Both the position numbers and the translations under genes were made by a program. DNA of 33,664 nucleotides from Paracoccaceae bacterium (lineage in GTDB: Bacteria; Pseudomonadota; Alphaproteobacteria; Rhodobacterales; Rhodobacteraceae), in contig QKHF01000302.1 of NCBI GenBank assembly GCA_003250135.1, positions 1 to 33,664 on the forward strand. The letters are read 5' to 3'. Shown piece by piece: positions 3,156-26,091 of the stretch. The notes beneath the pieces were generated by a model. The model saw only the letters and a program-made list of their open reading frames with translations, ran no database searches and was not told the DNA's origin. How positions within the stretch are numbered: the stretch's first letter is position 1; the number at the start of each line of letters is the position of its first letter.

Positions 3156-3763
3156 TCACAACACCGAGGTCCACTTTCCGGCCACACCCGATTTCTGAAC
3201 CTCGTGGATTAATAGAATCCAAAAACTTGATTCTGAAAAGTTATTTTTTTCAACAAGTTGGAGTCATTGATTAACGCCTCACCTGAAGTAAGGCGGTTAT
3301 TTGGCCCCGATCCGCCTGTGGCATCGAAGATTCAGCGAATCAAAAAGTTTTAACCACAAGATGTAGATTTCGGGGGCTCTGCTTCGCCTGAAATCGGGCG
3401 AGAATGAGTCCAGACCTGCTGTCAAAAATGGGCCTTTCGCCACCTTTGATGTGATAAATTTGGCACAAATTTCGCCATATAGATGCACGAATTCCGCCGA
3501 AGATTCGCGTGAGTCGCGAGTCAAAGTCTGATTCTACACTTTCTGGCAGGTTAAAATCCGAATCCGACCGGTCCTCCGCCTGAAAATCTGGCGCCAAAAT
3601 GGGCGCGGCCGACTCAGCGCTGCGCCGCGGACGCCGATCCGCGCCCCTTCGGCCCGTCCGCCTTATTGTGGCCGTCCGGATCAGCGACCGCGCGATCAAG
3701 CACCGTCGCGGACCCCGTCGCGGACGCGCGCCGGACCCCGCAAAATGGCCTGGCCGGACCCGC

Positions 3764-3792
3764 TTGACGCCGTCCGCACCGGGGCGTAGATA
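3764..3792 (+). promoter_or_regulatory. Sigma70-type promoter for tRNA-Met
   Basis: TTGACG (3764-3769), a 17-nt spacer, then TAGATA (3787-3792). This puts a start about 6-8 nt downstream, just before the tRNA 5' end at 3805. Confidence 0.55.
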
Positions 3793-3804
3793 ACGCCCCG
3801 CCTT

Positions 3805-3881
3805 GGCGAGGTAGCTCAGCCGGTTAGAGCGCAGGACTCATAATCCTGAGGTCGAGAGTTCGAGTCTCTCCCTCGCTACCA
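3805..3881 (+). tRNA. tRNA-Met, anticodon CAT, elongator-like, encoded CCA
   Basis: Hand-folded cloverleaf. D stem is GCTC/GAGC. Anticodon stem is CAGGA/TCCTG with loop CTCATAA. T arm is GAGAG-TTCGAGT-CTCTC. Acceptor is GGCGAGG/CCTCGCT with G1-U72 wobble, followed by ACCA. It lacks initiator features (no C1xA72, no three G-C pairs in the anticodon stem). A lysidine-modified tRNA-Ile2 cannot be excluded from sequence alone. Confidence 0.9.
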
Positions 3882-4005
3882 CTTCTCTTCTTCACCCGAT
3901 CCTTCATCATGCGTCGCGGAATGCCGGCCGATCCGCGGCTGACATGCCGGCGGCCGTTCTGATAGGCTCCCGCCCGTCATAATTGATTAGTCGAGGTTCA
4001 GGCCC

Positions 4006-6798: not shown

Positions 6799-6889
6799 CC
6801 CGCAGGCGCCGTCAATCGCGCTTTCCACGCGCGGCGTGTTGCGGTTAGGAAATATCGTACGCGTATTAGTGACAGGGAACGCAATCAGG

Positions 6890-7660
6890 ATGCCGCAGCG
6901 GAATGAGGCTGACGAACCGATCTCGCAGTTCAAACTCGAGGGCGCGCCGCCCCCCTTCTATGGCGGCCTGACCGTTCTGGAGGCCCGCCTCCACAGCGAC
7001 CTGGCCGTCTCGGACGCGCGAAACTTCGAATTTCTGCGCGGCGCGCAAAGCGTGCCGCTGACGGCGGAAGAGATCCCCGCCGCCCAGCGCGACTTTCCGG
7101 TGGTCTTCGCGGAGGGCGACGAGCCCACCCCGGTGGCGGCGCTTGCGGCGCGCGGCGCCGATGCGTTTCTGACCGAAAGCGGCGCCTGGAGGCCGGATGT
7201 ATATCAACCGGCCTATCTGCGTCGCATGCCGTTCATCCTGGCGCGCATCGACGGCGATTCAAAACGTCGCGCCCTGTGCGCCGATCTGAAGTCCCCGCTT
7301 TTCGCATCCGACCCTGACGCGCCGCCGGAGCGCCGGCTGTTTGCGGACGGCCGACCGACGGAACTCGCGCAGAGGGCGATCAAGATCTGCGAGGAGTTCG
7401 ACGTGGCCGCGGCGCGAACCAGCACGCTCTGCCGGCGGCTCAGCGATCTCGGCGTATTCGAGCGCCGCTCGGTGCAAGTAAGGACGCCTGGCGGCGTACG
7501 TGAATTCCGCGGCCTCGTCGTCATCTCGGAAGCCAAGTTGTGGGAGCTTGACGACGCGGCCCTGGCGGGGCTGGCGCGGACCGGCGCATTGAACATCGCT
7601 GCGGCGCATCTTATGTCGATTGCTAACTTTCGTTCTCCGCAAGCCGCCTCCACGACTTAA
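6890..7660 (+). CDS. SapC-family protein
   Basis: ATG at 6890 follows CAGGA. Segments resemble the SapC family: FEFLRGAQSVPLTAEEIPAAQRDFPVVF and YQPAYLRRMPFILA. The track start at 6749 overlaps the cyclase end and is unlikely. Confidence 0.7.
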   Translation: MPQRNEADEPISQFKLEGAPPPFYGGLTVLEARLHSDLAVSDARNFEFLRGAQSVPLTAEEIPAAQRDFPVVFAEGDEPTPVAALAARGADAFLTESGAWRPDVYQPAYLRRMPFILARIDGDSKRRALCADLKSPLFASDPDAPPERRLFADGRPTELAQRAIKICEEFDVAAARTSTLCRRLSDLGVFERRSVQVRTPGGVREFRGLVVISEAKLWELDDAALAGLARTGALNIAAAHLMSIANFRSPQAASTT

Positions 7661-7794: not shown

Positions 7795-8853
7795 GTGCCG
7801 ATCGACGTCGATTCTTTACTTGTAAGCCTCGGGGACGATGAGCCCTGCGGAGAGGATCTCGAGTACGATCTTTCATTTACTGAGCTGGAGATCGCCGCTC
7901 AGCCCAAGGAAGAGCAGCAGGTCGGAGATCAGGTCCTCGAAGGCGCCGAGCCCGAATGGGGGGACGTGAAGGAAAAGGCGCTGGCCGTGCTTCAGGAAAG
8001 CAAGGACCTGCGCGCCGCCGTCTACCTCGCCAACGCGGAACTGTTTCTCGAAGGCTTTCCAGGCTTCGCCGCGGTCCTCGAATACATGCACCGCACCCTC
8101 ACCGAGTATTGGGACCACGTCCATCCGCAGCTCGACGCGGATGACGACAACGACCCCACGATGCGCGTCAACGCGGTGGTGGGCCTGACGGATTCCGACA
8201 CCGTGCTAAGGGCCGTCCGCCGCGCCGTGCTGACGGACTCGCGCGGCTTCGGCCGGATGACCCTGCGGCACATCGAAGTCGCCAACGGCGAAAGCACCAC
8301 GCCGAGCGATATGGACGACCCGCCGGACTCGGCGCAGGTCGCAGCGGCTTTCCAGGACACGGACGAGGAAACCAAGCAGGAGATTTTCGCCGCGCTCGAC
8401 AAGTGCGTCGAGATGACCAAAGCGATCACGGGCGTGTTCGACGACAAGCTCGGCACCGGCTATGGGCCGGACCTGTCGCCGCTCGCCGACACGCTGAAAA
8501 AGATCGTGAACGCCTGCAAGCCTTACGGCGCAGGCGGCGGCGCGGCTGGCGAGGAGTTCGCTGAAGGCGGGGCCGGCGGCCCGAGCGGCGGCGGCGGACC
8601 TGCCGTGGGTCCCGGGCCAAGCGGCGGCGGCGGCGTCGGCGGCATCAACAATCCGAATGACGTGCGCAATGCGATCGACCGCATTTGCGAGTATTATGAC
8701 CGCGTGGAGCCGTCGAGCCCGGTGCCGCTTCTGCTGCAGAGGGCGCGTCGGCTTGTCGCCGCTGACTTCCTGACGATCATGAAGGATCTGGCCAGCGAAG
8801 GCGTGGAACAGGTGCGCAATGTGGGCGGCATCCAGGAAGAGGACGAAGATTGA
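7795..8853 (+). CDS. tssA: Type VI secretion protein TssA (ImpA N-terminal domain, short form)
   Basis: AGGAGG lies 7 nt upstream of GTG. ImpA_N signature: EPCGEDLEYDLSFTELE ... KDLRAAVYLANAEL. A Gly-rich linker (GAGGGAAGEE...GGGGVGG) precedes the C-terminal domain. It is the first gene of the cluster. Confidence 0.9.
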   Translation: MPIDVDSLLVSLGDDEPCGEDLEYDLSFTELEIAAQPKEEQQVGDQVLEGAEPEWGDVKEKALAVLQESKDLRAAVYLANAELFLEGFPGFAAVLEYMHRTLTEYWDHVHPQLDADDDNDPTMRVNAVVGLTDSDTVLRAVRRAVLTDSRGFGRMTLRHIEVANGESTTPSDMDDPPDSAQVAAAFQDTDEETKQEIFAALDKCVEMTKAITGVFDDKLGTGYGPDLSPLADTLKKIVNACKPYGAGGGAAGEEFAEGGAGGPSGGGGPAVGPGPSGGGGVGGINNPNDVRNAIDRICEYYDRVEPSSPVPLLLQRARRLVAADFLTIMKDLASEGVEQVRNVGGIQEEDED

Positions 8854-8951: not shown

Positions 8952-9470
8952 ATGGCTGACAGCAGTCAGAAATTCATCGCGCGCAACCGCGCGCCGCGCG
9001 TGCAGATCGAATACGACGTCGAGGTCTACGGCGCCGAGAAGAAGGTGCAACTCCCCTTCGTCATGGGCGTCATGGCGGATCTCTCGGGCAAGCCCGAAAA
9101 TCCCCTGCCGGCCGTCGCCGACCGCAAGTTCCTGGAAATCGACGTCGACAATTTCGACGCCCGCATGAAGTCGATGAAGCCGCGCGCCGCGTTCACGGTC
9201 CCCAACACGCTTACCGGCGACGGCAATCTGGCGGTCGACATCACTTTCGAGAGCCTTGACGACTTCTCGCCCGCCGCCATCGCGCAGAAGGTGGAGCCGC
9301 TGAAGAAACTGTTCGACGCCCGCACCCAGCTGTCCAACCTGATGACGTATATGGACGGCAAGCAGGGCGCCGAGGACCTGTTGACCAAGATCACGCAAGA
9401 TCCCGCGGTTCTGCAGGCGCTGGCCGCTGCGCCCAAAGAGGGCGGTGACGAAGACAAGACGGAAGAGTGA
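8952..9470 (+). CDS. tssB: T6SS contractile sheath small subunit TssB (VipA/ImpB)
   Basis: RVQIEYDVEVYGAEKKVQLPFVMGVMADLSGK and FESLDDFSPAAIA are classic TssB motifs. GGAG is upstream. Confidence 0.95.
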   Translation: MADSSQKFIARNRAPRVQIEYDVEVYGAEKKVQLPFVMGVMADLSGKPENPLPAVADRKFLEIDVDNFDARMKSMKPRAAFTVPNTLTGDGNLAVDITFESLDDFSPAAIAQKVEPLKKLFDARTQLSNLMTYMDGKQGAEDLLTKITQDPAVLQALAAAPKEGGDEDKTEE

Positions 9471-9475
9471 CGAAC

Positions 9476-10963
9476 ATGGCTGAAGCTGAATCCCAAGCCG
9501 CCCAAGGCGAAGTCGCATTCGCCGAAAGCGATTTCGCGGCCCTGCTGGAAAAAGAATTCCGGCCGAAATCGGACCAGGCCAAAGAGGCTGTCGCGAGCGC
9601 GGTGCGCACGCTGGCCGAACAGGCGCTGGCCAACACCAACCTGATCAGCGACGAGGCGTTGAAGACGATCGAGTCGATGATCGCCGAGATCGACGCGAAG
9701 CTGACCGAGCAGGTGAACCTGGTTCTGCACCATCCCGATTTCCAGGCGCTGGAATCGTCGTGGCGCGGCCTGCACTTCCTCGTCAATAACACCGAGACGG
9801 ACGAGACCCTGAAGATCCGGGTGCTCAACATCTCGAAGAAGGACCTCCACAAGACGCTTCGGAAGTTCAAAGGCACGGCCTGGGACCAGAGCCCGATCTT
9901 CAAGAAGATGTACGAGGAGGAGTACGGTCAGTTTGGCGGCGAGCCCTATGGCGCGCTGGTTGGCGACTACTACTTCGACCACAGCCCGCGCGACGTCGAG
10001 ATTCTGGGCGAGATGTCCAAGGTCGCCGCCGCGGCGCACTGCCCGTTCCTGACCGGCGCCGAGCCGACGCTGTTCCAGATGGACAGCTGGCAGGAACTGG
10101 CGAACCCGCGCGATCTGACCAAGATCTTCCAGACGCCGGAATACGCCGCCTGGCGCAGCCTGCGCCAGTCGGAGGACTCGAAATATGTCGGGCTTTGCAT
10201 GCCGCGTTTCCTCGGCCGTCTGCCCTACGGCTCCAAGACCGACCCGGTCGAGGCGTTCGACTTCGAAGAGGACACCGAGGGCGCGACGAGCGACAAGTAC
10301 GGCTGGGTCAACGCCGCCTACGGCATGGCGCGCAATATCACCCGCGCGTTCAAGTCATACGGCTGGTGCACCCGCATCCGCGGCGTCGAGTCGGGCGGCG
10401 CGGTGGACAACCTGCCGACCCACACCTTCCCGTCGGACGATGGCGGCGTGGACATGAAATGCCCGACCGAGATCGCTATCTCGGACCGGCGCGAGGCGGA
10501 ACTGGCCAAAAACGGCCTGATGCCGCTGATCCACCGCAAGAACAGCGACATGGCCGCATTCATCGGCGCCCAGTCGCTTCACCAGCCGGCCGAGTATGAC
10601 GACCCGGACGCGACCGCGAACGCCAATCTCGGCGCGCGCCTGCCGTATCTGTTCGCGACCTGCCGTTTCGCCCACTATCTGAAGTGCATGGTCCGCGACA
10701 AGATCGGCTCGTTCAAGGAGCGTGACGACATGCAGGCCTGGCTGCAGAAGTGGATCGACAACTACGTCGACTACTCCGAGAACTCGCCGGAAGAAGAAAA
10801 GGCCAAAAGGCCGCTGGCGGCCGCCGAGGTCGTGGTGGAGGAGGTCGAGGGCAACCCCGGCTATTACACCTCGAAGTTCTTCCTGCGTCCGCATTACCAG
10901 CTTGAAGGGCTTTCGGTGTCCCTGCGGCTGGTCTCCAAGCTCCCGTCGCAGAAAGCGGCGTAA
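9476..10963 (+). CDS. tssC: T6SS contractile sheath large subunit TssC (VipB/ImpC)
   Basis: HHPDFQALESSWRGLHFLV, PRFLGRLPYG and the C-terminal YYTSKFFLRPHYQLEG are present. The ATG at 9476 is preferred; the track gives GTG at 9467, overlapping the tssB stop. Confidence 0.95.
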   Translation: MAEAESQAAQGEVAFAESDFAALLEKEFRPKSDQAKEAVASAVRTLAEQALANTNLISDEALKTIESMIAEIDAKLTEQVNLVLHHPDFQALESSWRGLHFLVNNTETDETLKIRVLNISKKDLHKTLRKFKGTAWDQSPIFKKMYEEEYGQFGGEPYGALVGDYYFDHSPRDVEILGEMSKVAAAAHCPFLTGAEPTLFQMDSWQELANPRDLTKIFQTPEYAAWRSLRQSEDSKYVGLCMPRFLGRLPYGSKTDPVEAFDFEEDTEGATSDKYGWVNAAYGMARNITRAFKSYGWCTRIRGVESGGAVDNLPTHTFPSDDGGVDMKCPTEIAISDRREAELAKNGLMPLIHRKNSDMAAFIGAQSLHQPAEYDDPDATANANLGARLPYLFATCRFAHYLKCMVRDKIGSFKERDDMQAWLQKWIDNYVDYSENSPEEEKAKRPLAAAEVVVEEVEGNPGYYTSKFFLRPHYQLEGLSVSLRLVSKLPSQKAA

Positions 10964-11034
10964 TCGCTATCCCGGCGTCTCCGAATTAGGGACGCCGGAC
11001 CCGACCATCAACTGTCCCACAGGGAGACCCGACT

Positions 11035-11550
11035 ATGTATGACGCGTTTTTCCATTTCACCGGCGGCGAAGTGAAAGGCGAGACCCAGGACGACGAGATG
11101 GCGAAGAAGCACGCCTTCGAAGTTCTGAGCTTCGACTTCGGCTGCGAGAACTCGATCTCGATCGGCTCGATCTCGGGCGGCGGCGGCGCCGGCAAGATGT
11201 CGTTCAAAGAACTGTCGATGACCAAGAAGTGCGACACGTCCTCGACCGCGTTCTTTGAGAAACTCTGCCTGGGCACCCACTTCGACGAAGGCAACCTGTC
11301 GATCCGGCGCGCCGGCGGCACGACCGACTCGGTCGGCAAGACCTTCTTCCTCTTCAAGTTCAAGTTCATGATGGTTCAGGACATCGCCTGGTCCGGTTCG
11401 GAAGGTGACGAGATCTTCACCGAGACCATCATCATGAAGTTCGGCGCGTGCGAGATGGAGTACACGCCGCAGCTCGCCACCGGCAAGGACGGCACCAAGC
11501 AGGTCAGCCGCTTCAGCGCGACCAAGAACAAGAACAAGTACGAGGTCTGA
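11035..11550 (+). CDS. hcp: Hcp (TssD) tube protein
   Basis: 171 aa starting MYDAFFHFTGGEVKGETQD. KHAFEVLSFDFG and FKFKFMMVQDIAWSG are typical of the Hcp1 family. Position after tssC fits. Confidence 0.93.
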   Translation: MYDAFFHFTGGEVKGETQDDEMAKKHAFEVLSFDFGCENSISIGSISGGGGAGKMSFKELSMTKKCDTSSTAFFEKLCLGTHFDEGNLSIRRAGGTTDSVGKTFFLFKFKFMMVQDIAWSGSEGDEIFTETIIMKFGACEMEYTPQLATGKDGTKQVSRFSATKNKNKYEV

Positions 11551-11616
11551 CCTTCGTGCTTGCGCCGTGGCCGCTCCGCGGCCCGGCATACGACACGCGT
11601 CCGGCCCCCCGGCAAG

Positions 11617-11633
11617 CCCCCGCCTCGCGGGGG
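11617..11633 (+). terminator. GC-rich hairpin downstream of hcp (possible attenuator or mRNA stabiliser)
   Basis: CCCCCGC-ctc-GCGGGGG is a 7-bp all-GC stem. A second hairpin, GGCCGC-tcc-GCGGCC, lies at about 11569-11583. There is no U-tract, so this is not a canonical intrinsic terminator. Confidence 0.3.
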
Positions 11634-11683
11634 TCGGACGTCCCAACGCCCTCCCAACCGCTATTTGAGGTCGCATCGCCGCC

Positions 11684-12496
11684 ATGCTCGCAGAAGACAA
11701 ACTGAAGGCCGGCGACCTGCCCGGCGCCAAGGCGGCGCTGCAGGATGCGGTGCGCAAGGACCCGTCCAACGCCCATCTGCGCGTATTCCTGTTCCAGCTC
11801 CTCGCCGTCCTGGGCGAGTGGGAGCGTGCGGTGGCGCAGTTGAAGGTGTCTGCCGAACTCGCGGCGGAGGCCGAGCCGATGGCCCGCGCCTATCGCGAGG
11901 CGATCATCTGCGAGGTCTTCCGCGCGAAAGTGTTCGCCGGAGAGAAGGAACCCCTGCTGTTCGGCGAGCCCGCCGAGTGGATGGCGCTTCTGGTCGAGGC
12001 TGCCAAGTGCGTCAACACCGGTCAGCCAGAGGCGGCGGTCGCGCTGCGCGATAAGGCGTTCGGCATGGCGCCGACCCTGTCGGGAGAGATCGACGGCCAG
12101 CGCTTCGAGTGGATCGCCGACGCCGACATGCGCTTCGGCCCGCTTCTGGAGATCGTGATCAACGGGCGTTATTTCTGGGCGCCCTTCACCGCCTTCTCCT
12201 CGATCCAGTTCGACGAGCCGAAGGACTTGCGCGACAGCGTCTGGACGCCGGCGCAGGTGAAGTCCGCAAGCGGCGGCGAAGTGGTCGCCTTCATCCCCAC
12301 GCGCTATCCCGGCGCCGAGCGAGAGGAAGACGACAAGCTGCGCCTCGCCCGCTCGACCGAGTGGGTCGATGTGGGGGCCGATACCTGGATCGGGCGCGGT
12401 CAGCGCATGTTCGCCACCGATTTCGGCGACGTGCCGATCATGGACGCGCGCCGGATCACCTTCGATCCGCCCAAGACAGAGGGCGACGATGGCTGA
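11684..12496 (+). CDS. tagJ: T6SS accessory protein TagJ (ImpE family)
   Basis: TPR-like N-terminus (AKAALQDAVRKDPSNAHLRVFLFQLL) and an ImpE C-terminal region (INGRYFWAPFTAFSSIQFDEPKDLRDSVW). Same position as tagJ1 in the P. aeruginosa H1 cluster. Confidence 0.88.
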   Translation: MLAEDKLKAGDLPGAKAALQDAVRKDPSNAHLRVFLFQLLAVLGEWERAVAQLKVSAELAAEAEPMARAYREAIICEVFRAKVFAGEKEPLLFGEPAEWMALLVEAAKCVNTGQPEAAVALRDKAFGMAPTLSGEIDGQRFEWIADADMRFGPLLEIVINGRYFWAPFTAFSSIQFDEPKDLRDSVWTPAQVKSASGGEVVAFIPTRYPGAEREEDDKLRLARSTEWVDVGADTWIGRGQRMFATDFGDVPIMDARRITFDPPKTEGDDG

Positions 12497-12986
12497 CCAG
12501 CAGCTTTACGAGCGCCTCCAGCCGTCGCTGCTCGACCGGCTGACGGATGAAGACCCCACGAACATGAAGGAAACGCGCGCCCATCGCGTAATCGACCTGG
12601 AAAAGCTGCGGCAGATCGTGCGGCGCGACCTCGCCTGGCTGCTCAACACCACGAATTTCGCCGCCGGCCAGGATCTGGAGCGTTTCCCGAACGTCGCCAA
12701 GTCGGTGCTCAATTACGGCATCCCGGACACCGCCGGGCAGCGCATCACGGATTTGCGCGACCGCAGCATCGAGCAGTTGCTGAAAAAGACGATCCAGAAC
12801 TTCGAGCCGCGGATCATGCCGAACACGCTGAAAGTCTCCTACTCCGAGAACACCGATCGCGACCAGACCGCCGTAATCGCTTTCGACGTGCGCGGGCAGC
12901 TTTGGGCGCAGCCGGTTCCGCTGGAGCTCTTCATCCGCTCCGAGGTCGACGTGACCTCGGGCGAGGTGAAGATCGTCGACGGCTGA
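12489..12986 (+). CDS. tssE: T6SS baseplate subunit TssE (gp25-like)
   Basis: ATG at 12489 overlaps the tagJ stop by 8 nt. LQPSLLDRLTDEDP and DLAWLLNT are typical TssE/GPW_gp25 motifs. Confidence 0.92.
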   Translation: MADQQLYERLQPSLLDRLTDEDPTNMKETRAHRVIDLEKLRQIVRRDLAWLLNTTNFAAGQDLERFPNVAKSVLNYGIPDTAGQRITDLRDRSIEQLLKKTIQNFEPRIMPNTLKVSYSENTDRDQTAVIAFDVRGQLWAQPVPLELFIRSEVDVTSGEVKIVDG

Positions 12987-15920: not shown

Positions 15921-18623
15921 ATGGCGGAAATCAGCAGAGTCGCGCTGTTCGGAAAGCTCAACAAGCTGGGCTATCAGGCGATCGAGGGGGCGACCGTGTT
16001 CTGCAAGATGCGGGGCAACCCCTATGTGGAGCTGGTGCACTGGCTGCAGCAGATCCTGCAGATGCAGGATAGCGACCTGATGCGGATCGTGCAGCACTTC
16101 GACCTGAACCCGTCGAAACTGGCCAAGGACGTGACCGAGTCGCTGGACCGGCTGCCGCGCGGTGCGACATCGATCTCCGATCTCTCCACCCATATTCAGG
16201 AAGCGGTGGAGCAAGGCTGGATCTACGCCAGCCTGTTGTATAATTCGAACCACATCCGCACCGGCCACCTGATGATCGGCCTGGTGAAGACGCCGTCTCT
16301 GAAGAACGCGCTCTACGCGATTTCCGGCGAATTCAAGAAGGTCAAGGCGGACGAGCTGTCCGACAATTTCGAGGACATCCTGGGCGATTCCGTCGAAGCG
16401 CGGCTGTCGCCGACGGACGGGTCCCAGGTTGGCGGCGGCGCCGTGCCGGGCGAGGCCTCGGGCGCGATGTCGCCGGCGCAGATGGGCAAGGAGGAGGCGC
16501 TGCAGCAGTTCTGCGTCGACCTCACCGAGAAGGCGCGCGAGGGCGATATCGACAATATCGTCGGCCGGGATGAGGAGATCCGCCAGATCGTCGACATCCT
16601 GATGCGGCGGCGGCAGAACAACCCGATCCTGACCGGCGAGGCGGGCGTGGGCAAGACGGCCGTCGTGGAGGGCTTCGCGCTGAGGATCGCCCGCGGCGAC
16701 GTGCCCCCCAGCCTGGCCGACGCGCGACTCCTGATGCTGGATGTGGGCCTGTTGCAGGCCGGCGCCTCGATGAAGGGCGAGTTTGAGAACCGCCTGCGCG
16801 CCGTGATCGACGAAGTTCAGGCGAGCGCCACCCCGATCATCCTGTTCGTGGATGAGACGCACACCCTGGTCGGCGCCGGCGGTCAGGCCGGCACCGGCGA
16901 CGCGGCCAACCTGCTGAAACCGGCCCTCGCCCGTGGCACGCTGCGCACCATCGGCGCGACGACCTGGGCCGAGTACAAGAAATACATCGAGAAGGACCCG
17001 GCGCTGACCCGCCGCTTCCAGGTGGTCAAGGTCGATGAGCCGGGCGAGGAGAAGGCGATCCTGATGATGCGCGGCATCGCCGGGATGCTGGAGAAGCACC
17101 ACAAGGTGCAGATCCTCGACGAAGCGCTGGACGCCGCCGTGCGCCTGTCGCACCGCTACATCCCCGCGCGCCAGCTGCCGGACAAGTCGGTCAGCCTGAT
17201 CGACACCGCCTGCGCCCGCGTCGCGATCAGCCAGCATGCGGTGCCGGCCGAGGTGGACGATTGCCGCCGCCGCATCCAGGCGCTGGAGACGGAGCTGGAG
17301 ATCATCGAGCGCGAGGAAAGCGCCGGCTACGACGTGGTCGAGCGCCGCGCGCAGGCCCAGACCCTGCTGGACGAGGAGAAGGAGCGCCTCGAAGGGCTGG
17401 AGGCGCGCTGGGCCGGCGAGAAGGAGATCGTGGAGAAGATCCTCGAAATCCGCGGCAAGCTGAGGAAGGGCGGCGCCTCGGTGGACGAGCCGGGCGCGGC
17501 CGAGGACACCGAGCATTCCGAGCTTTCGGAGGACGAGCGCGCGGCGCTGCTTGTGGAGTTGAAGGAGACGCAAGAGAAGCTGCACGAGGTGCAGGGCGAG
17601 ACGCCGCTGATCCTGCCCATCGTCGACGCGCAAGCCGTGGCGACCGTGGTCGGCGACTGGACTGGCATCCCGGTCGGCCGGATGATGAAGGACGAGATCT
17701 CGACAGTGCTCAGCCTTGCGGATCACCTGAACAAGCGGGTGATCGGGCAAGACCACGCGATGCACATGATCGCCAAGCGCATCCAGACCTCGCGCGCCGG
17801 GCTCGACAACCCGAACAAGCCGATCGGCGTGTTCATGCTCGCCGGCCCCTCGGGCGTCGGCAAGACCGAGACAGCGCTGGCGCTGGCCGAGGCGCTCTAT
17901 GGCGGCGAGCAGAACGTCGTCACCATCAACATGTCCGAGTATCAGGAGGCGCACACCGTCTCCTCGCTGAAAGGCGCGCCTCCGGGCTATGTCGGCTATG
18001 GCGAGGGCGGCGTTCTGACCGAGGCGGTGCGCCGCAAGCCCTACTCCGTCGTCCTTCTGGACGAGGTGGAGAAGGCGCACCCGGATGTGCACGAGATCTT
18101 CTTCCAGGTGTTCGACAAGGGCATCATGGAGGACGGCGAAGGCCGCCTGATCGATTTCAAGAACACGCTGATCCTGCTGACCTCGAACGTGGGTTCGGAG
18201 CTGATCATGGACATGTGCTCGGACCCCGAGTTGCTGCCTGAGCCGGAGGGAATCGCCAAGGCGCTGCGCGAGCCGCTGCTGAAAGTATTCCCGGCGGCGC
18301 TTCTGGGCCGGATCGTAACCATTCCTTACTACCCGCTCAGCGATCACATGATCGGCGAGATCTCCAAGCTGCAGCTTGGCCGCATCGTCAAACGCATCAA
18401 GGCCAATTACGGCATTCCGCTGACCTATGACGACTCGGTGATTCAGACCATTATCGACCGCTGTCAGGAACTGGAGTCCGGCGGGCGCATGATCGACGCC
18501 ATCCTGACCAACACCATGCTGCCCGCGATCTCGACCGAGTTCCTGCGCCGGACCATGGAGGGCGAGCCGATCGAGAAGGTCAACGTCACGATCAAGGACG
18601 GGGAATTCGCCTACGAATTCTGA
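15921..18623 (+). CDS. clpV: T6SS AAA+ ATPase ClpV (TssH)
   Basis: Clp N-domain, two Walker A motifs ([16 protein letters not shown]) and a coiled-coil middle domain. 900 aa. Confidence 0.96.
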
Positions 18624-18683: not shown

Positions 18684-19919
18684 ATGGCGAAGACAAAGAC
18701 GACGACGCACAAGTTCTACGTTGTCGACCTGATCCGCAACAAACCCAAGTCGCAGTATATCGAGATCCCGAAATACCGGGTCGATGTCGAGATCGAGGTC
18801 ACGACCAAGGGCAAGCTTTCGGCCAAGGAAGTCCCGTCGGCCGCGATGGAGCGGCTCGAGAAGACCGCCCGGAAGACTCTGGACGAGTACGAGAAGGTCA
18901 TCACGGAAGAGGCCATCAAGCTCGACAAGAAGATCACCGACCTGATGAAGCAGCCTTCGAAAGCGGCTCAGCAGGAAGCGGAAAAGCTGATCCAGGGGAC
19001 CAACGCGTCGATCAAGAACGCGCTCGATTCAGCCGAAGGCGCGGCGCAGAAGTCGATCGAAGCGCGGCTGAAGAAGGAAGCGCAGGGCGACAAGAACCTG
19101 AAAGAGGCGCGGGTCCGCACCGGCCTGAAGGTGGGCAAGAGCGTGATCAAGATCGCCGGGTCCGTCGGCAAGCTGGTCGCCAGCGCGGGCGCCGATGTTT
19201 CGTCCTATCTCACGATCACCAAGGAACTGGTCAACCTCGGAAAGGAGCTTCAGCAGCAGCTCAAGAACGAGGAGAAGCTTCGCAGCGACCTGCAGAAGGG
19301 CGTCGAGGCCTATGTGGCTTTCCGGGGCGACGAGATCATGAGGGCCGCCAAGAAGATCGGCCTGACCGACACGAAGGGCATCGACTTCAAGAAACCGCGC
19401 GAGGCGATGAAGGTCGTCGCGGATCGGCTCGCCGAGGGCGGCGAGGTCGCAAAGAAGGAGTTTCAGGACCCGAAGTCCGGCCTGACCAAGCTCAAGAGCG
19501 TCGTGATCAGGGGCGTCAAGTCGAAGCTTGCGGACGCGAACAAGGCCCGCCAGAAGTACCGCGAGCACACCACCAAGACGCGGCAAAAGGTCGACTCCAT
19601 GTCCGCCTCCGCCGACAAGCTGCAAAAGGCGATGCGGAGCGCGAAGAACCTGAAAGAGGGCGTGAAGATCGGCGCCCAGTGCATGCAGGTCAAACACGGG
19701 GTCTCGGCCATGGCCAGCAAGCTGGACGACCGCGAGAAATTCCTCGACAGCATGCAGGATATCCTGTCCGAGGCGGGCATGGACATTGACGACCGCACGA
19801 CGCTCGACAAGCTGAAGGAACTGGACAAGAAGACGATCCTGACCGAAGGCAAGGACCTGCTGAAGTCGATCAAGACGGTCAAGGGCGCGATCGAGTCGGT
19901 CGCTTCGGCGGTCGTCTAG
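18684..19919 (+). CDS. Lys-rich, predicted mostly alpha-helical protein of unknown function (T6SS-embedded orphan)
   Basis: AGGGAGGA lies upstream of the ATG. Strong GC3 bias in this frame (AAG, GAG, GTC, ATC codons). 66 Lys in 411 aa by my count. A short beta-like N-terminus (HKFYVVDLI ... YRVDVEIEVTT) is followed by long amphipathic helical sequence. No family recognised. Confidence 0.75.
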   Translation: MAKTKTTTHKFYVVDLIRNKPKSQYIEIPKYRVDVEIEVTTKGKLSAKEVPSAAMERLEKTARKTLDEYEKVITEEAIKLDKKITDLMKQPSKAAQQEAEKLIQGTNASIKNALDSAEGAAQKSIEARLKKEAQGDKNLKEARVRTGLKVGKSVIKIAGSVGKLVASAGADVSSYLTITKELVNLGKELQQQLKNEEKLRSDLQKGVEAYVAFRGDEIMRAAKKIGLTDTKGIDFKKPREAMKVVADRLAEGGEVAKKEFQDPKSGLTKLKSVVIRGVKSKLADANKARQKYREHTTKTRQKVDSMSASADKLQKAMRSAKNLKEGVKIGAQCMQVKHGVSAMASKLDDREKFLDSMQDILSEAGMDIDDRTTLDKLKELDKKTILTEGKDLLKSIKTVKGAIESVASAVV

Positions 19920-20013
19920 GATTGATGCCGGCGCCTCGTCCGCGACTCAAAGCCATCGCTGGGAACGGGTGATGCGCGCGGCGGCGATAAGACGATAGAC
20001 TGCGCGGCGCCCC

Positions 20014-20964
20014 GTGGCGCGGCGCGACAAGATGAGACGAATGACGATGCCCGATTCTGAATCCATAATGAAGGCGCTGACGCCCAAGGGGCTGTCAACG
20101 ATCACCGACACCGAAAGCGTGATGGAGACGTCTCCGGAGGATCACAGCCTGCGCGCCAGGGCGCGGCGTCTGGTCGAGCTCGAAACGTTCAAGAACGTGA
20201 TCATGGTGGTCATCATCATCAGCGCGGTCGCGATCGGGCTGGGAACGGCGCCGTCGATACAGGAGAAGTTTGGCCCCGCGCTTGAACTTCTGGACACGAT
20301 CGTCATCGTGATCTTCGTCGTCGAGCTCGGACTGAAGCTGTTCGGTTACGGCTGGAATTTCTTCAAGTCCGGCTGGAACATTTTCGACCTCGTGATCGTG
20401 ATCATATCTCTGGCGCCGGCCGATGAAAGCCTGAAGGCCCTGCGGACCCTGCGTATCCTGCGGGCGATGCGAATCCTCTCGATCGTGCCGCAGATGCGCA
20501 AGGTCGTGGTGGCGCTGCTGACCGCCCTGCCCGGCATGGCCTCGGTGATCATCGTCCTCGGCATCGTCTTCTACATCTTCGCCGTGATCACGACCCGACT
20601 CTATGGCGAAGCCTTTCAGGACTGGTTCGGAACCGTCGGCCTTTCGCTCTACTCGCTGTTCCAGATCATGACGCTGGAAAGCTGGTCCATGGGCATTGTG
20701 CGTCCGGTGATGGAGGAATTTCCCTACGCCTGGGTGGTGTTCGTGCCCTTCATCATGGTCACGACCTTCGCGGTGGTGAACCTGTTCGTCGGTCTGCTGG
20801 TCAACACGATGCAGGAGGCGGTCGAAGAGGAAAAGGACGCCGAAATCGAGAAGCTGCGCGAACTTGTGCGGGGGGAGAACGCCGCCGTCAGCGCGCAGAT
20901 CACAGAATTACGCAAGCTGGTCCTGGAGCTGCGGGCCTCCGCCCAAAACGACCGGCAAAGTTGA
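20014..20964 (+). CDS. Voltage-gated sodium channel, BacNaV/NaChBac family
   Basis: Six hydrophobic segments. S4 is LRTLRILRAMRIL with four Arg at every third position (about 20431-20502). Pore filter is FQIMTLESWSMGIVRPV (TLESWSM at 20671-20691). C-terminal coiled-coil-like EKLRELV...ITELRKLVLELRA. Start is ambiguous: GTG 20014, or ATG at 20032, 20041, 20047 or 20068. Confidence 0.88.
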   Translation: MARRDKMRRMTMPDSESIMKALTPKGLSTITDTESVMETSPEDHSLRARARRLVELETFKNVIMVVIIISAVAIGLGTAPSIQEKFGPALELLDTIVIVIFVVELGLKLFGYGWNFFKSGWNIFDLVIVIISLAPADESLKALRTLRILRAMRILSIVPQMRKVVVALLTALPGMASVIIVLGIVFYIFAVITTRLYGEAFQDWFGTVGLSLYSLFQIMTLESWSMGIVRPVMEEFPYAWVVFVPFIMVTTFAVVNLFVGLLVNTMQEAVEEEKDAEIEKLRELVRGENAAVSAQITELRKLVLELRASAQNDRQS

Positions 20965-21016: not shown

Positions 21017-22885
21017 GTGAGCGACACCGAGTTCGCACCCAATTTCGGAACCCTCAACGCCCCTGAGCCCGAGCGACGCCCGGACGGGAAGGGCCGCAAG
21101 CGCCTGGCGATTCTGGGTGATTTCTCCGGCCGCGCCACCCGCGGCGAGCTGGAGATCGGCGACGGGCTGGCCAACCGCAAGCCGCTGAAGCTGGACGTCG
21201 ACACGATGGAGCAGCTTCTGCAGCGGCTCGAGGTCAAGGTCCAGTTGCCGATCGGCGCGGACGACTCGGTGATCGAGGTCGAGATCAGCGAGATCGAGTC
21301 CTTCCATCCGGACGAGCTGTACGAGGAGCTGGAGCTGTTCTCGGAACTGGCCGGGCTGCGCCAGCAGCTGAAGAACTCCAGCACCTTCGACCGGGCCGCC
21401 GCCACGGTGCGCGGCTGGGCCGAGGAGGCCGGCGAGAAGCCCAAGCGGAAGAAGAAGCCCAAGGCGGCCGCGGTTGCAGTCGGCGCCCGGCTGTCCGACT
21501 TCGAAAAGCTGATGGGCCAGCGCGTGACCGCCAGCCATGAAGAGGCCGATATCGACAGTCTTCTGGCCAATATCGTCGGCCCGCATATCGTCGCCGCGCC
21601 GGACCCGGAACAGTCGACGATGATTGCGGCGGTCGACGCCGCCCTGTCGGACGCCATGCTCCGCGTGCTGCATCATCCCGACTTCCAGACGGTGGAGGCC
21701 GCGTGGCGGTCCGCCGACCTGCTGACCCGGCGGGTGGAGACCGACGCCGAGCTGCAGCTGGTGATGTACGACGTCTCGGTCGAGGAATTCACCGCCGATC
21801 TCGCCGCGCAGGACGAGCTGAGCGAGAGCGGGCTCTACAAGATGCTGGTTGAGAACCCGGCGCTCGACGAGGATCAGGGCCCCTTGAGCGCGATCTTCGG
21901 GCTCTACGAGTTCGATGAAACCCCGCCCCATGCGGAATTGCTCAGCCGCATCGGCAAGATCGCCCAGCAGGCGCACGCGCCCTTCGTCGCCTCGATGTCG
22001 GCCAATGCGCTGAAGACCGACTGGGATGACCACCATGTGCTGATCCGCGACACCTGGAAGGCGCTGAAGAAATCGCCGGAGGCGGCCTATATCGGCCTCG
22101 CCAGCCCGCGCTTCCTGCTGCGCCACCCCTACGGCGCGAAGTCCGAGCCGGTGGACCCGTTCGATTTCGAGGAGTTCTCCCGCCGCGAAGGCGTCAAGGG
22201 CATGCTGTGGGCGAACCCCGCCGTGCTGGCCTGCGTGATGCTGGCCAAGACCCTGAAGGAGGGCAAGCGCCTCGGCCAGATCATGACCATGGGCGACGTT
22301 CCCTATCACGTGATGGAGGACGAATACGGCGACCAGATCGCCCTGCCGACCACGGAGCGGCTGCTGAACGCGAAGACCGCGCAGAAGCTGGCCAAGCGCG
22401 GCTACATGCCGGTGCTGTCGATCAAGGGCCGCAACGAGGTTCGGCTCGGCTCGTTCCAGTCGCTCAAGGGCAAGCCGATCGCCGGCTTCTGGTCCGGCGC
22501 GCCGATCCCGATCGAGGCGGAGGAGCCCGAGGTCGAGGTGATGATGGTCGCCGGCAAGGCGCCCGAACGGGTCAAGGTCGAAGAGGAGGAAGAGGACGTC
22601 ACGCCCGGTTTCGAAGACGACGATGACGATCTCGATCTTGACCTCGATCTCGACTTCGATCTGGACGATGACAGCGAGGCTGAGGAGTCCGACGGCGACG
22701 ACGACCTGGACCTCGATCTCGACTTCGATCTCGACGACCTGGGCGGCGACGATGACGCCGGCGATGACGACGATGGGATGGACGAGTTGGACGCCCTTCT
22801 GGCCGATCTCGGCGGCGACGACGACGAGGACGACGAAGACGAGGACCTCGACGCCGATCTGGACGCCCTGCTGGCCGATCTTTGA
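21017..22885 (+). CDS. Single-chain TssB-TssC sheath-like paralog, C-terminally truncated, with polyacidic tail
   Basis: GTG follows TAGGAG. Residues about 25-125 align by eye with TssB (LAILGDFSGR ... LKLDVDTMEQLL ... IESFHPDELY). Residues about 165-500 align with TssC (HHPDFQTVEAAWRSADLL, ASPRFLLRHPYG, PVDPFDFEEF). The TssC C-terminal region is absent. The last 101 aa contain 58 Asp/Glu and no Lys/Arg/His. Confidence 0.8.
   Translation: MSDTEFAPNFGTLNAPEPERRPDGKGRKRLAILGDFSGRATRGELEIGDGLANRKPLKLDVDTMEQLLQRLEVKVQLPIGADDSVIEVEISEIESFHPDELYEELELFSELAGLRQQLKNSSTFDRAAATVRGWAEEAGEKPKRKKKPKAAAVAVGARLSDFEKLMGQRVTASHEEADIDSLLANIVGPHIVAAPDPEQSTMIAAVDAALSDAMLRVLHHPDFQTVEAAWRSADLLTRRVETDAELQLVMYDVSVEEFTADLAAQDELSESGLYKMLVENPALDEDQGPLSAIFGLYEFDETPPHAELLSRIGKIAQQAHAPFVASMSANALKTDWDDHHVLIRDTWKALKKSPEAAYIGLASPRFLLRHPYGAKSEPVDPFDFEEFSRREGVKGMLWANPAVLACVMLAKTLKEGKRLGQIMTMGDVPYHVMEDEYGDQIALPTTERLLNAKTAQKLAKRGYMPVLSIKGRNEVRLGSFQSLKGKPIAGFWSGAPIPIEAEEPEVEVMMVAGKAPERVKVEEEEEDVTPGFEDDDDDLDLDLDLDFDLDDDSEAEESDGDDDLDLDLDFDLDDLGGDDDAGDDDDGMDELDALLADLGGDDDEDDEDEDLDADLDALLADL
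22640..22881 (+). repeat. Intragenic direct repeats encoding the acidic tail
   Basis: A 29-nt unit, gacctcgatctcgacttcgatctSgacga, occurs at 22640-22668 and 22709-22737 (28/29 identical, 69 nt apart, in frame; DLDLDFDLDD). A 20-nt unit, gacgccctKctggccgatct, occurs at 22790-22809 and 22862-22881 (19/20, 72 nt apart; DALLADL). Confidence 0.85.
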
Positions 22886-22938: not shown

Positions 22939-25074
22939 ATGCCGGATCTTGCTCTTGAGAACAGGAAATACAAGCTGGAGACCGGCGCCTCGCAGGACCT
23001 GTTCGTGGTCCACATGGTGCGCGAGGAATCGTTCAACTCGCTCTACACGCTCACCTTCGTCGTCGTCGCCGACGAGCACGTCGCGGCCAGCGAGATCGTC
23101 GGGCACGACGCGAAGATGTGGCTGGAGTCCGAGGCGCACGGCAAGACCTGGTATGGCGGCATCTGCACCGACTGCTCCTATGAGGGAATGATCGGCCAGC
23201 TGCATGTCTATCGCCTGATCGTCAGGCCCGAGTTGTGGCTGCTGACCCAGCGCCGCAACCATCGGATTTTCCAGGACGAGCTGGCGATGGACATCGTCGA
23301 CCAGGTGGTCCGCGACGCCGGCATCGACGTGGCGACCCGCAAGGGCGGCGAGTTTCCATCGACCGAGATGCAGGGCGACGACCCACATTCGAAGTTCGAG
23401 CATTGCGTCCAGTACGGCGAGACGGATTTCAACTTCGTCCAGCGCCTGATGGCCGAGGAAGGCATCTTCTACTATTTCGACCACAAGGACCCCAAGCCCG
23501 AGCTGATCGCCGGGCGGGTCAGCAGCGGTCTGGACCAGATCGCCGGCGACACGCTGACCTTCCAGAAGACCGAGACCATCGCCTCGCTGGATGGCGAGCG
23601 GATCTTCGTCTGGCGCTCCAGCCATCTGGTGCGGTCCGAGAAGGCGACTCTGAACGACTACAACCACCAGAACCCGACCGCGGACCTGAAAGTCTCCAAG
23701 GTCATCGAGAACAACAAGAAGTCGGGCTCGGAGCTGGAGCTGTACGACTATCCCGGACGCTATCGCGTCTCCGGGCGCGGCGACGATCTGGTCAAGAACC
23801 GGATGGAGGCGTTCGACGAGCCGACCTCTACCTGGGAAGGCAAAAGCAACATTCCGATCATGGTCGCAGGGCGGCACTTCCAAATGAAGGAGCACCCGGT
23901 CGACGCCTTCAACAACACGTCGTTTCTGATCACCCATTGCAAGCACGTGCTGCGCGCCGAGATGGACCTGATCCAGTCGATCATCTCTAACGGCGCGATG
24001 ACCGACGTTTTCGACGACAAGGAGGAGGCGCTGGCGGGCGTGCAGGCCCAAGGCGGCGACGCCGCTCCGACAGGCGGCGCCATCGACGGCTTTTCATGCG
24101 AATTCCGAGCGCAGGAACTGACCACCCCCTACCGCCCGCCGCAGGACACGCCGAAGCCCATCGCCTATAGCACCGAACCGGCGCTGGTGGTGGGCGACGA
24201 GGAAGAAAAGCCCCACGTGGACGAGTTCGGCCGCATCAAGTGCCATTTCTTCTGGGACCGCGACAGCCAGAAGGACGACACGTCGAGCGCCTGGATCCGG
24301 GTCATGCAGCCGGGCTTCGCCGATGCGCGCTGGGGCCAGCAGTTCATCCCGAGGGTCGGGCAGGAGGTGGTGGTCGCCTTCCAACGCGGCGATCCCGACC
24401 GGCCGATCGTCATCGGCGCGATGTATCACAAGGATTTCAAGCCGCCATACAAGCTGCCCGACAACAAGAGTCAGAGCGGCATCAAGACCAAGTCGCTGTC
24501 GGGCGCCGGCTATCACGAGCTTCTGTTCGACGACAAGGAGAACGAGGAGTACGTGCGCCTGCAGTCCCAGAAGGACTTCCACTTCATCGTCAAGAACAAG
24601 TGGCTGACTTCGATCGGATATGAAGAGATCGACAATCGCGGCATCGACGAAGCGACGCACGCGCCCAGCGATCCGGCCGCCGCGACCGGCGGCAGCGTGA
24701 CGGGCGGCGGCGACGACGGCGACTGCGCTATGAAGATCAAGAACAACTACAATGTCGAGGTCGACCAGGGCGACAACAACTTCAAGGTCTCGACCGGCAA
24801 CCAGAACACCGACGTCGCGACCGACCGCAAGACAACGGTGGGCGGCAACCACGAAGAGACGATCAGCGGCACTCAGGACATCACCATCACGGGGGCGTGC
24901 ACGATCACCTCGAACGCCAGCATCGAGCTGATCGTGGGGGCGTCCTCGATCAAGCTGGAGCCGGCCAAGATCACCATCAGCTCGACCGCGTTCGAGGTGA
25001 AAGGCACGGCGAGCGGCACGGTGGACGGCGGCCTGTCGCTGACCGTCAAGGCCGCGACGGTGAACATCAACTAG
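22939..25074 (+). CDS. vgrG: T6SS spike protein VgrG (TssI), no C-terminal effector domain
   Basis: gp27-like N-terminal half, the gp5 OB region with GQEVVVAFQRGDPDRPIVIGAMYH, then a beta-helix repeat tail ending ATVNIN. 711 aa. Confidence 0.95.
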   Translation: MPDLALENRKYKLETGASQDLFVVHMVREESFNSLYTLTFVVVADEHVAASEIVGHDAKMWLESEAHGKTWYGGICTDCSYEGMIGQLHVYRLIVRPELWLLTQRRNHRIFQDELAMDIVDQVVRDAGIDVATRKGGEFPSTEMQGDDPHSKFEHCVQYGETDFNFVQRLMAEEGIFYYFDHKDPKPELIAGRVSSGLDQIAGDTLTFQKTETIASLDGERIFVWRSSHLVRSEKATLNDYNHQNPTADLKVSKVIENNKKSGSELELYDYPGRYRVSGRGDDLVKNRMEAFDEPTSTWEGKSNIPIMVAGRHFQMKEHPVDAFNNTSFLITHCKHVLRAEMDLIQSIISNGAMTDVFDDKEEALAGVQAQGGDAAPTGGAIDGFSCEFRAQELTTPYRPPQDTPKPIAYSTEPALVVGDEEEKPHVDEFGRIKCHFFWDRDSQKDDTSSAWIRVMQPGFADARWGQQFIPRVGQEVVVAFQRGDPDRPIVIGAMYHKDFKPPYKLPDNKSQSGIKTKSLSGAGYHELLFDDKENEEYVRLQSQKDFHFIVKNKWLTSIGYEEIDNRGIDEATHAPSDPAAATGGSVTGGGDDGDCAMKIKNNYNVEVDQGDNNFKVSTGNQNTDVATDRKTTVGGNHEETISGTQDITITGACTITSNASIELIVGASSIKLEPAKITISSTAFEVKGTASGTVDGGLSLTVKAATVNIN

Positions 25075-25782: not shown

Positions 25783-26091
25783 ATGCCTCCAGCAGCCCGA
25801 TTGACGGACATGCACGCATGCCCGATGCAGACCCCGACCCCGGCCGGGCCGGTGCCGCATGTGGGCATGCCGATCATTCCGCCAGACGCGCCGACGGTGA
25901 TGATCTGCATGATCCCCGCGGCGCGGGTCAGCGACATGGGCGTCTGCACGGCGCCGGTGCCGAACGATCCGATCGTCAAGGGCAGCACCAGCGTTTTCAT
26001 CTGCAAGATGCCGGCGGCCCGCATCGGGGATTCCACGGCCCATGGCGGAACGGTCACCGCGGGCGCGCCCACGGTCAACATCGGCGGCTGA
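25783..26091 (+). CDS. PAAR-domain protein (spike-sharpening cone, no extension)
   Basis: Three PAAR motifs: PPAARLTD, IPAARVSD and MPAARIGD. 102 aa. Confidence 0.92.
   Translation: MPPAARLTDMHACPMQTPTPAGPVPHVGMPIIPPDAPTVMICMIPAARVSDMGVCTAPVPNDPIVKGSTSVFICKMPAARIGDSTAHGGTVTAGAPTVNIGG

Follow-up and report, generated by a model that had tools for sequence, protein, structure and literature searches.

A 33,664-nt stretch of DNA from a Paracoccaceae bacterium (contig QKHF01000302.1; hereafter the window) carries a gene for a bacterial voltage-gated sodium channel (BacNaV) inside a type VI secretion system (T6SS) cluster. The channel subfamily to which its product belongs is very likely a 'Tag'-like accessory dedicated to the H1-like T6SS (subtype i3) of marine Rhodobacterales. 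In the full reading proposed here, a functional channel, inherited and expressed with the cluster, serves this T6SS as a dedicated accessory and acts as its electrical sensor and actuator; we assign a rough probability of 0.45 to this combination. Its most specific part, the control of the T6SS by depolarization or Na+ entry, is put forward tentatively.

The channel gene and its predicted product

Sequence comparisons confirm that positions 20047 to 20964 encode an intact voltage-gated channel of the Na+ type and a member of the BacNaV family, as an earlier note on this DNA had proposed from the sequence alone. The Pfam Ion_trans match (E 6.7e-43, residues 59-273) covers a single six-transmembrane (6-TM) domain composed of an S1-S4 voltage sensor and an S5-P-S6 pore; a weak PKD_channel match overlaps it, and no other domain is seen in the protein. 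The best matches among all chains of the Protein Data Bank (PDB) are NavMs (5hvx, E 5.5e-75), to which the channel is 51% identical over 230 aa with one gap, and NavAb (3rvy, E 2.4e-69), whose alignment spans residues 41-308 of 316 and includes the C-terminal domain. The longest open reading frame starts at a GTG (20014..20964, 316 aa). The start codon is probably the ATG at 20047, because the gene call on record is 305 aa long and this ATG is aligned with the starts of three orthologues. A conserved GACGAA motif precedes the ATG and the three aligned starts. The features of the channel are as follows.

20047..20964, + strand: coding sequence of the BacNaV, 305 aa when read from the conserved ATG
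20164..20481, + strand: voltage-sensor domain S1-S4, approximately residues 40-145 of the 305-aa product, from the NavMs alignment
20440..20472, + strand: S4 gating charges LRTLRILRAMR (R133, R136, R139 and R142), read from the sequence
20494..20805, + strand: S4-S5 linker and pore domain S5-P-S6, from the alignment, with clade-specific Gln149 (VPQMR), and Leu251 and Thr254 at the S6 end
20671..20691, + strand: selectivity filter TLESWSM, of the Na+-selective NavAb/NavMs type
20809..20961, + strand: cytoplasmic C-terminal domain, made up of an acidic neck (MQEAVEEE...) and a predicted heptad helix, with the clade motif NTMQxAVEE and an LRxLV..E insertion

The earlier note had also read an S4 segment with arginine at every third position and a filter of the NavAb/NaChBac type, and both readings hold at the positions listed above. 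These elements are conserved without exception in an alignment of 195 channels that comprises the 130 members of the T6SS-linked clade described below and 65 other BacNaVs: all four S4 arginines are invariant in both sets, the TLESWSM filter is present in 195 of 195 sequences, and the countercharges Glu93 in S2 and Asp114 in S3 are invariant in 130/130 clade members and in all 195 aligned channels. The C-terminal domain has heptad-like hydrophobic spacing and aligns with the C-terminal domain of full-length NavAb to residue 308. A PDB search with this domain returned no close match, and no solved structure has a C-terminal domain of this type. The product is predicted to be a functional homotetrameric voltage-gated Na+ channel.

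Linkage of the channel to the T6SS across genomes

The channel lies within an accessory module bounded by two core T6SS genes.

15921..18623, + strand: clpV/tssH, upstream boundary of the module (Pfam AAA_2, AAA_lid_9, ClpB_D2-small)
18684..19919, + strand: 411-aa gene occupying a variable slot, with no Pfam or NCBIfam match
19934..20046, + strand: conserved 5' leader of the channel gene, approximately 113 nt, 73% mean column identity with three orthologous loci
21017..22885, + strand: sheath-like TssB/TssC paralog, 622 aa (Pfam VipB 3.5e-47, VipA 3.9e-07)
22939..25074, + strand: vgrG/tssI, downstream boundary of the module (Pfam Phage_GPD, Phage_base_V, Gp5_trimer_C)

With core T6SS genes on both sides and on the same + strand, the channel gene is embedded in the presumed T6SS operon, as had been claimed. 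Its placement between clpV and vgrG is correct in a loose sense: the immediate neighbors are other genes, with clpV ending at 18623 and vgrG starting at 22939. Likewise, the gaps of 94 nt and 52 nt given in the earlier note have the right values and separate the reading frame from the 411-aa gene and from the 622-aa sheath-like paralog instead. The gap from the end of the 411-aa gene to the ATG at 20047 is 127 nt. The sheath-like paralog, which is the constant partner of the channel, had been missed.

The channel recurs in the T6SS loci of related genomes, a point on which the earlier note had let its proposal depend. The order clpV - (variable gene) - channel - sheath-like gene - vgrG was found in every same-clade context checked (about 20 Rhodobacterales lineages), on chromosomes as well as plasmids, with the channel on the T6SS strand between core genes. 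The closest homologues (79-83% identity) occupy the same slot in two complete chromosomes of Paracoccaceae metagenome-assembled genomes (MAGs) and in one 10.5-kb contig. More distant homologues (50-61% identity) occupy it in Paralimibaculum aggregatum, two Pseudomonadota MAGs, Albidovulum marisflavi, Ostreiculturibacter and a Paracoccaceae MAG, and also in Pseudooceanicola batsensis HTCC2597, Sulfitobacter sp. BDSS02 and a JGI contig. In the last three, the end of the channel gene and the beginning of the sheath-like gene that follows it overlap by 4-11 nt. Carriers were found largely from marine or saline sources.

A plasmid collection yielded the channel on 22 Rhodobacterales plasmids, namely 17 from Leisingera, two from Parasedimentitalea and one each from Ruegeria conchae, Phaeobacter sp. 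G2 and Qingshengfaniella. The identical 22 plasmids carry the sheath-like paralog (at least 44% identity) and rank as the 22 best TssF matches. The deposited plasmid annotation reads tssH - hypothetical - 'ion transporter' - 'contractile sheath large subunit' - tssI. A metagenome scan with the sheath-like paralog returned five loci only, mostly truncated. A scan of a genome collection recovered 73 BacNaV loci, and T6SS genes were found at the five closest to the window channel only. None of the other 68 loci has T6SS genes within +-10 kb (0/68); these include Erythrobacter, Halopseudomonas, Marinomonas and Luteimonas, and also Roseovarius, Loktanella and a Paracoccaceae chromosome.

Phylogeny, co-divergence and selection

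In a tree of the 195 channels, the last common ancestor of the T6SS-linked sequences defines a clade of 130 members that contains none of the 65 non-T6SS loci; its bootstrap support is 99/100 (neighbor joining, 100-sequence subset). On this tree, Rhodobacterales have two BacNaV lineages, only one of which resides in the T6SS. Because the standalone Rhodobacterales channels, which have no T6SS neighbors, lie outside the clade, the linkage is not simply taxonomic, and chance or taxonomic confounding was ruled out as its cause. In a search for a characterized BacNaV inside the clade, the N-terminus of NavSulP was without a match among the 360 proteins compared.

Pairwise distances between channels correlate with those of T6SS proteins encoded in the clusters (ClpV, r 0.77; TssF, 0.81; TssG, 0.78; sheath-like paralog, 0.82; VgrG, 0.84), compared with 0.87 for ClpV against TssF and 0.89 for TssG against TssF among core pairs. 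The channel evolves at approximately the rate of TssF. Its dN/dS against three close orthologues is 0.11-0.19 at a dS of 0.68-0.98, by which measure the gene is under purifying selection. The clade has conserved residues of its own on the cytoplasmic side: 100% of the T6SS clade, compared with 3% of sequences elsewhere, have Gln149 in the VPQMR motif of the S4-S5 linker, and further clade-specific sites are Leu251 and Thr254 at the S6 end, Val259 and the NTMQxAVEE motif in the neck, and the LRxLV..E insertion in the C-terminal domain. The channel has belonged to this T6SS lineage from the lineage's common ancestor onward and is separable from the core machine.

Expression and a conserved 5' leader

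Co-expression of the channel with the T6SS, suggested in the earlier note, is borne out in part. A motif scan of both gaps for promoters and terminators found none above background; a single promoter-like match spans the start codon, at background frequency. One sediment metatranscriptome holds sequence of the window, with near-exact contigs at the 411-aa gene (18692-18842) and inside the channel (20231-20440). A further contig (20929-21146, zero mismatches) spans the channel stop and the sheath-like start, and more contigs lie further into the sheath-like gene. This downstream contig and the stop/start overlaps in relatives are consistent with joint expression, but the upstream junction of the channel has no metatranscriptome coverage.

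The leader that precedes the ATG is conserved although the upstream gene differs or is absent in the three related loci compared. It is not detectable beyond the closest relatives, and an Rfam scan of the window found a tRNA-Met only, with no match in the leader. A hairpin in the consensus fold (four sequences, 4-7 bp) was weak and not convincing. The leader may act as an internal promoter or as a translational leader or control element.

The sheath-like paralog and the variable slot

The sheath-like paralog adjoins the channel downstream in every T6SS-linked locus. It consists of a weak TssB/VipA-like region fused to a TssC/VipB N-domain, lacks the VipB_2 C-domain and ends in an acidic tail of DLDLD repeats; its VipA and VipB scores are below the NCBIfam equivalog cut-offs. 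No description of a fused sheath-like paralog was found in the literature searched. The family is widespread, with members in Rhodobacterales, Roseibium, Rhizobium sp. GN54, Cohaesibacter, Planctomycetes and Eleftheria. The channel and the paralog were considered as an inseparable pair, which was ruled out by Rhizobium sp. GN54 and Eleftheria, where the paralog occurs alone. Other copies are located in loci L085 (8855-13150), L082 (16069-19803), L099 (approximately 9335-12298) and L084 (13983-15761). Many roseobacter sheath-like proteins are 1063-1517 aa long and open with a full TssB copy that is 66-77% identical to the real tssB product; in the one protein scanned, this copy is followed by a linker of approximately 900 aa.

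The slot between clpV and the channel is either empty (L001, L086, L004 and L005) or filled by one or two genes. Where genes are present, they belong to the 411-aa family, to a family of 513-aa proteins with a glycine-rich hydrophobic hairpin or to a family of approximately 310-360 aa, or encode an unrelated 402-aa protein. The 411-aa family is conserved at 47-86% identity and is found in the same slot on a Leisingera caerulea plasmid (60% identity). Members are also named from Ruegeria, Betaproteobacteria and Planctomycetota, and one lies outside any T6SS in an Aquabacterium MAG (L096). AlphaFold modeled the 411-aa protein as a low-confidence helical bundle (pLDDT 65), for which a Foldseek search of the PDB gave one borderline match, to a designed helical bundle (E 9e-4, TM <0.3). 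Its identity as a pore-forming toxin was considered and found unsupported, ClyA/Ahl/Smh-type matches being limited to E 0.1-0.5 and TM of approximately 0.2.

Tandem-sensor channels and a Planctomycete homologue

In seventeen BacNaVs (406-451 aa), an additional S1-S4 domain at the N-terminus precedes a complete S1-S6 unit, giving two successive voltage-sensor domains (VSDs) in a VSD-VSD-pore layout. The extra domain keeps the four arginines, the S2 glutamate and the WNxFD motif. Examples are L004 10001-11266, from Paralimibaculum aggregatum, and L005 10001-11278; the three loci checked, which encode two proteins, all belong to a T6SS. An AlphaFold model of a tandem-sensor channel was of low confidence (pLDDT 60). 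Since a T6SS-linked subgroup gained a second conserved S1-S4 domain, voltage sensing itself seems to be the selected property.

In the T6SS locus of a Pirellulales MAG, a voltage-gated channel homologue (L098, approximately 12064-12800, minus strand) follows the sheath-like paralog on the opposite strand. It has a four-arginine S4, FRLARLLRTLRMV, a TLEGWND filter and 30-34% identity to the window channel. The filter resembles TLEGWVD, which we take to be that of CavMr, a native bacterial Ca2+ channel, and differs from the Na+-type TLESWSM of the window channel. The homologue is frameshifted, and no gene is called; assembly errors are likely, because this MAG also has its ClpV broken into three parts. 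The case may represent an independent association of a channel with a T6SS, seen at one locus in an error-prone assembly.

The surrounding T6SS cluster

The window holds a complete T6SS cluster, all on the + strand, from tssA to the start of tssM. Such clusters have the H1-like gene order of subtype i3 (PMC9515649). Outside the accessory module, the genes are the following.

4762-6798, + strand: CHASE2-adenylate/guanylate cyclase, upstream of tssA
within 4762-7660, + strand: SapC-family gene, between the cyclase and tssA
7795-8853, + strand: TssA, followed in order by TssB, TssC and Hcp
11684-12496, + strand: TagJ/ImpE, followed in order by TssE, TssF and TssG
between vgrG and PAAR, + strand: DUF6931 gene
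25783-26091, + strand: PAAR, followed in order by Fha, TssJ, TssK and TssL-OmpA
31088 to the window end, + strand: TssM, first 859 aa

The CHASE2-cyclase and SapC genes (4762-7660), directly upstream of tssA, are candidate cluster-specific regulators. The tRNA-Met lies at 3805-3881, upstream of the T6SS region, in a low-GC stretch (2500-4000; 0.57 compared with approximately 0.66), and genes for an SLT transglycosylase and a BTLCP protease lie beyond it; this may be an island boundary. The 108-kb plasmid of Leisingera sp. S132 (L094, L095) combines its T6SS with a full chemotaxis operon, ExbB/ExbD genes and caspase-family proteins; it also encodes TagH/Fha within the cluster and, near tssM, a PpkA-like kinase, PP2C and TagF.

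Proposed function and alternative explanations

We propose that the channel would sit in the inner membrane of the attacking cell as an electrical sensor and actuator. Depolarization, arising from a neighbor's attack that damages the membrane, from envelope stress or from cell contact, would open it, and the steep Na+ gradient in seawater would then drive a fast Na+ influx and further depolarization. This signal would control the assembly or firing of the T6SS post-translationally. The likely route would run through the clade-specific cytoplasmic surfaces (the glutamine of the S4-S5 linker, the S6 end, the neck and the C-terminal domain) and the presumably co-translated sheath-like paralog. 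A sensor role is favored because H1-like clusters carry Fha, TagF, PP2C and a Ser/Thr kinase, with no TagQRST annotated in one plasmid region. A stronger version, which we consider rather unlikely, is electrically triggered secretion, in which an action-potential-like Na+ spike on contact or attack would directly trigger or position sheath assembly or contraction and be read through the conserved cytoplasmic domain of the channel and the acidic-tailed sheath-like paralog. If it were true, bacteria would possess a voltage-gated weapon, BacNaVs would gain their first defined cellular function outside alkaliphilic Bacillus, and the tandem-sensor variants and the TLEGWND channel of the Planctomycete locus would have solved the same problem in parallel.

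Several observations weigh against the sensor proposal. Plasmid pSC52_2 of Rhodobacteraceae bacterium SC52 carries the same cluster, with a TssF of 53% identity, but there vgrG comes immediately after tssH, and the cluster has no slot gene, channel or sheath-like paralog. Rhizobium sp. GN54 lacks a channel but has clpV, the sheath-like paralog and a distantly related member of the 411-aa family, and in Eleftheria terrae, also without a channel, the paralog comes after tssK. Because such related T6SSs exist, the channel is, on gene content, an accessory rather than a core component and dispensable for this T6SS type. The channel copy on Parasedimentitalea marina pW43D (L100, approximately 1250-2200) is broken by several frameshifts into three or more reading frames, and its annotation is that of an 'ion transporter' of 193 aa, a state that reflects either gene decay or sequencing indels. 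The RNA evidence comes from one low-depth, unstranded metatranscriptome in which DNA carry-over is possible, and an internal promoter in the leader would make the regulation of the channel partly separate from that of the upstream T6SS genes. The finding that TagQRST is not annotated is judged from annotation alone, in the regions examined of one Leisingera plasmid. Finally, the membrane localization of the channel in a complex and the stimulus are points that we infer, and its coupling to the T6SS purely so.

Several of these observations would also suit a channel that is a passenger with a general role in Na+ or pH homeostasis, motility or chemotaxis, as has been suggested for standalone BacNaVs, traveling with a T6SS island or plasmid and having no effect on secretion. 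Related T6SSs work, by their gene content, without the channel; the T6SS plasmids also carry chemotaxis and ExbBD clusters and are thus niche-adaptation replicons; one channel copy is frameshifted; and the conserved leader may give the gene its own regulation. A passenger would, however, hardly be expected to keep a fixed same-strand position between core genes in about 20 lineages, on chromosomes and plasmids alike, to overlap the next T6SS-type gene by 4-11 nt, or to match some core pairs in the tightness of its co-divergence with core proteins. Nor would it be expected to form a clade distinct from the standalone Rhodobacterales BacNaVs with its own conserved cytoplasmic residues, and we regard this explanation as unlikely. 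No more probable is a gate for salinity or energy state, in which the channel, by sensing external Na+ or the resting potential, would restrict T6SS assembly to conditions that are seawater-like and energized. The largely marine or saline origin of the carriers and the strict conservation of the Na+-selective filter agree with such a gate, and the evidence from linkage bears on it equally. A voltage-gated, inactivating channel would nevertheless be a poor steady-state sensor of salinity, and the additional voltage sensor of one subgroup suggests that voltage is the input under selection. The gate is best seen as a variant of the electrical-sensor proposal, from which the present evidence does not separate it.

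The position of the gene close to vgrG raises two explanations that involve toxins. By one of them, the channel would act together with the variable upstream gene, a putative membrane-active effector, either as its helper or in an immunity-like, self-protecting role against ion-selective pore-forming effectors. The slot is hypervariable like effector slots, and PAAR is also close by; some slot proteins have glycine-zipper-like hydrophobic hairpins, and the 411-aa family is modeled as a long helical bundle with a hydrophobic hairpin for which ClyA-type pore formers appear only among non-significant fold matches. Against such a role, members of this family also occur outside T6SS clusters. Immunity proteins normally co-vary with their effector, but the channel is kept where the slot gene changes family or is absent (the four loci with an empty slot listed above), and a Na+ channel opened by depolarization would aggravate rather than relieve the action of a depolarizing toxin. 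We therefore consider a toxin-related role improbable. By the other explanation, the channel itself would be a secreted effector that inserts into prey membranes, for which ion-selective pore-forming T6SS effectors (Tse4 and Tse5; PMC12169545, PMC9637101) provide a precedent. A 6-TM subunit of this kind would still have to tetramerize. Domain searches found no MIX, PAAR, Rhs or VgrG-fusion features and no Eag/DUF1795, DUF4123 or DUF2169 adaptor features in the channel or the adjacent genes, no cognate immunity gene is apparent, and the sequence is under strong purifying selection, in the manner of a housekeeping channel. This makes a secreted channel very improbable indeed.

Relation to known systems and significance

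The window channel shares with NavMs of Magnetococcus marinus and NavAb of Arcobacter butzleri the 6-TM fold as predicted from sequence, the four S4 arginines, the S2/S3 countercharges, the TLESWSM filter and, as a prediction, a C-terminal neck with a helical bundle. It differs from them in belonging to a separate clade that is always T6SS-encoded in the contexts checked, in having Gln for Ser/Thr in the S4-S5 linker and its own residues at the S6 end, and in the longer conserved C-terminal domain. The NavSp1-like pore of PDB 7pgf resembles the standalone Roseovarius lineage, not the T6SS clade. The TagQRST-PpkA-Fha1-PppA pathway of the Pseudomonas aeruginosa H1-T6SS offers a functional parallel: H1-like clusters carry Fha/TagH, TagF, a PP2C phosphatase and a Ser/Thr kinase, and by analogy the channel, too, would inform the decision to fire of a perturbed membrane. 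The two are not homologous, TagQRST being a lipoprotein, a periplasmic protein and an ABC transporter and not an ion channel. The channel might hypothetically feed a threonine-phosphorylation pathway of the TagQRST type. Effectors of the Tse4/Tse5/Ssp6 type likewise tie the T6SS to membrane potential and the flux of monovalent cations (PMC12169545, PMC9637101). Unlike the window channel, which most likely acts in the producer, they are delivered toxins of unrelated sequence that are paired with immunity proteins and act in prey.

No literature linking BacNaVs or voltage-gated sodium channels to the T6SS was found in full-text searches, in agreement with the earlier note, which knew of no described link. 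A cluster analysis of roseobacter T6SSs draws non-T6SS genes as unlabeled 'other' and mentions no channel (PMC9515649), the channel gene is not mentioned in the roseobacter T6SS surveys consulted, and the GenBank annotation of the channel is 'ion transporter'. The protein adds a member to a known family, but as a conserved T6SS accessory the channel appears to be undescribed.

BacNaVs are structurally among the best-understood ion channels. To our knowledge, their cellular role has been worked out mainly in alkaliphilic Bacillus, where it concerns motility, chemotaxis and pH homeostasis. The linkage described here ties a whole BacNaV subfamily to one cellular machine and makes the purpose of BacNaVs addressable in culturable roseobacters such as Leisingera, Phaeobacter and Ruegeria. 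It exposes an overlooked accessory module, in which a variable gene and a sheath-like TssB/TssC' paralog flank the channel, and suggests that membrane potential or Na+ flux may be a regulatory input to the T6SS, unrelated to the TagQRST/PpkA, TagF or transcriptional routes.

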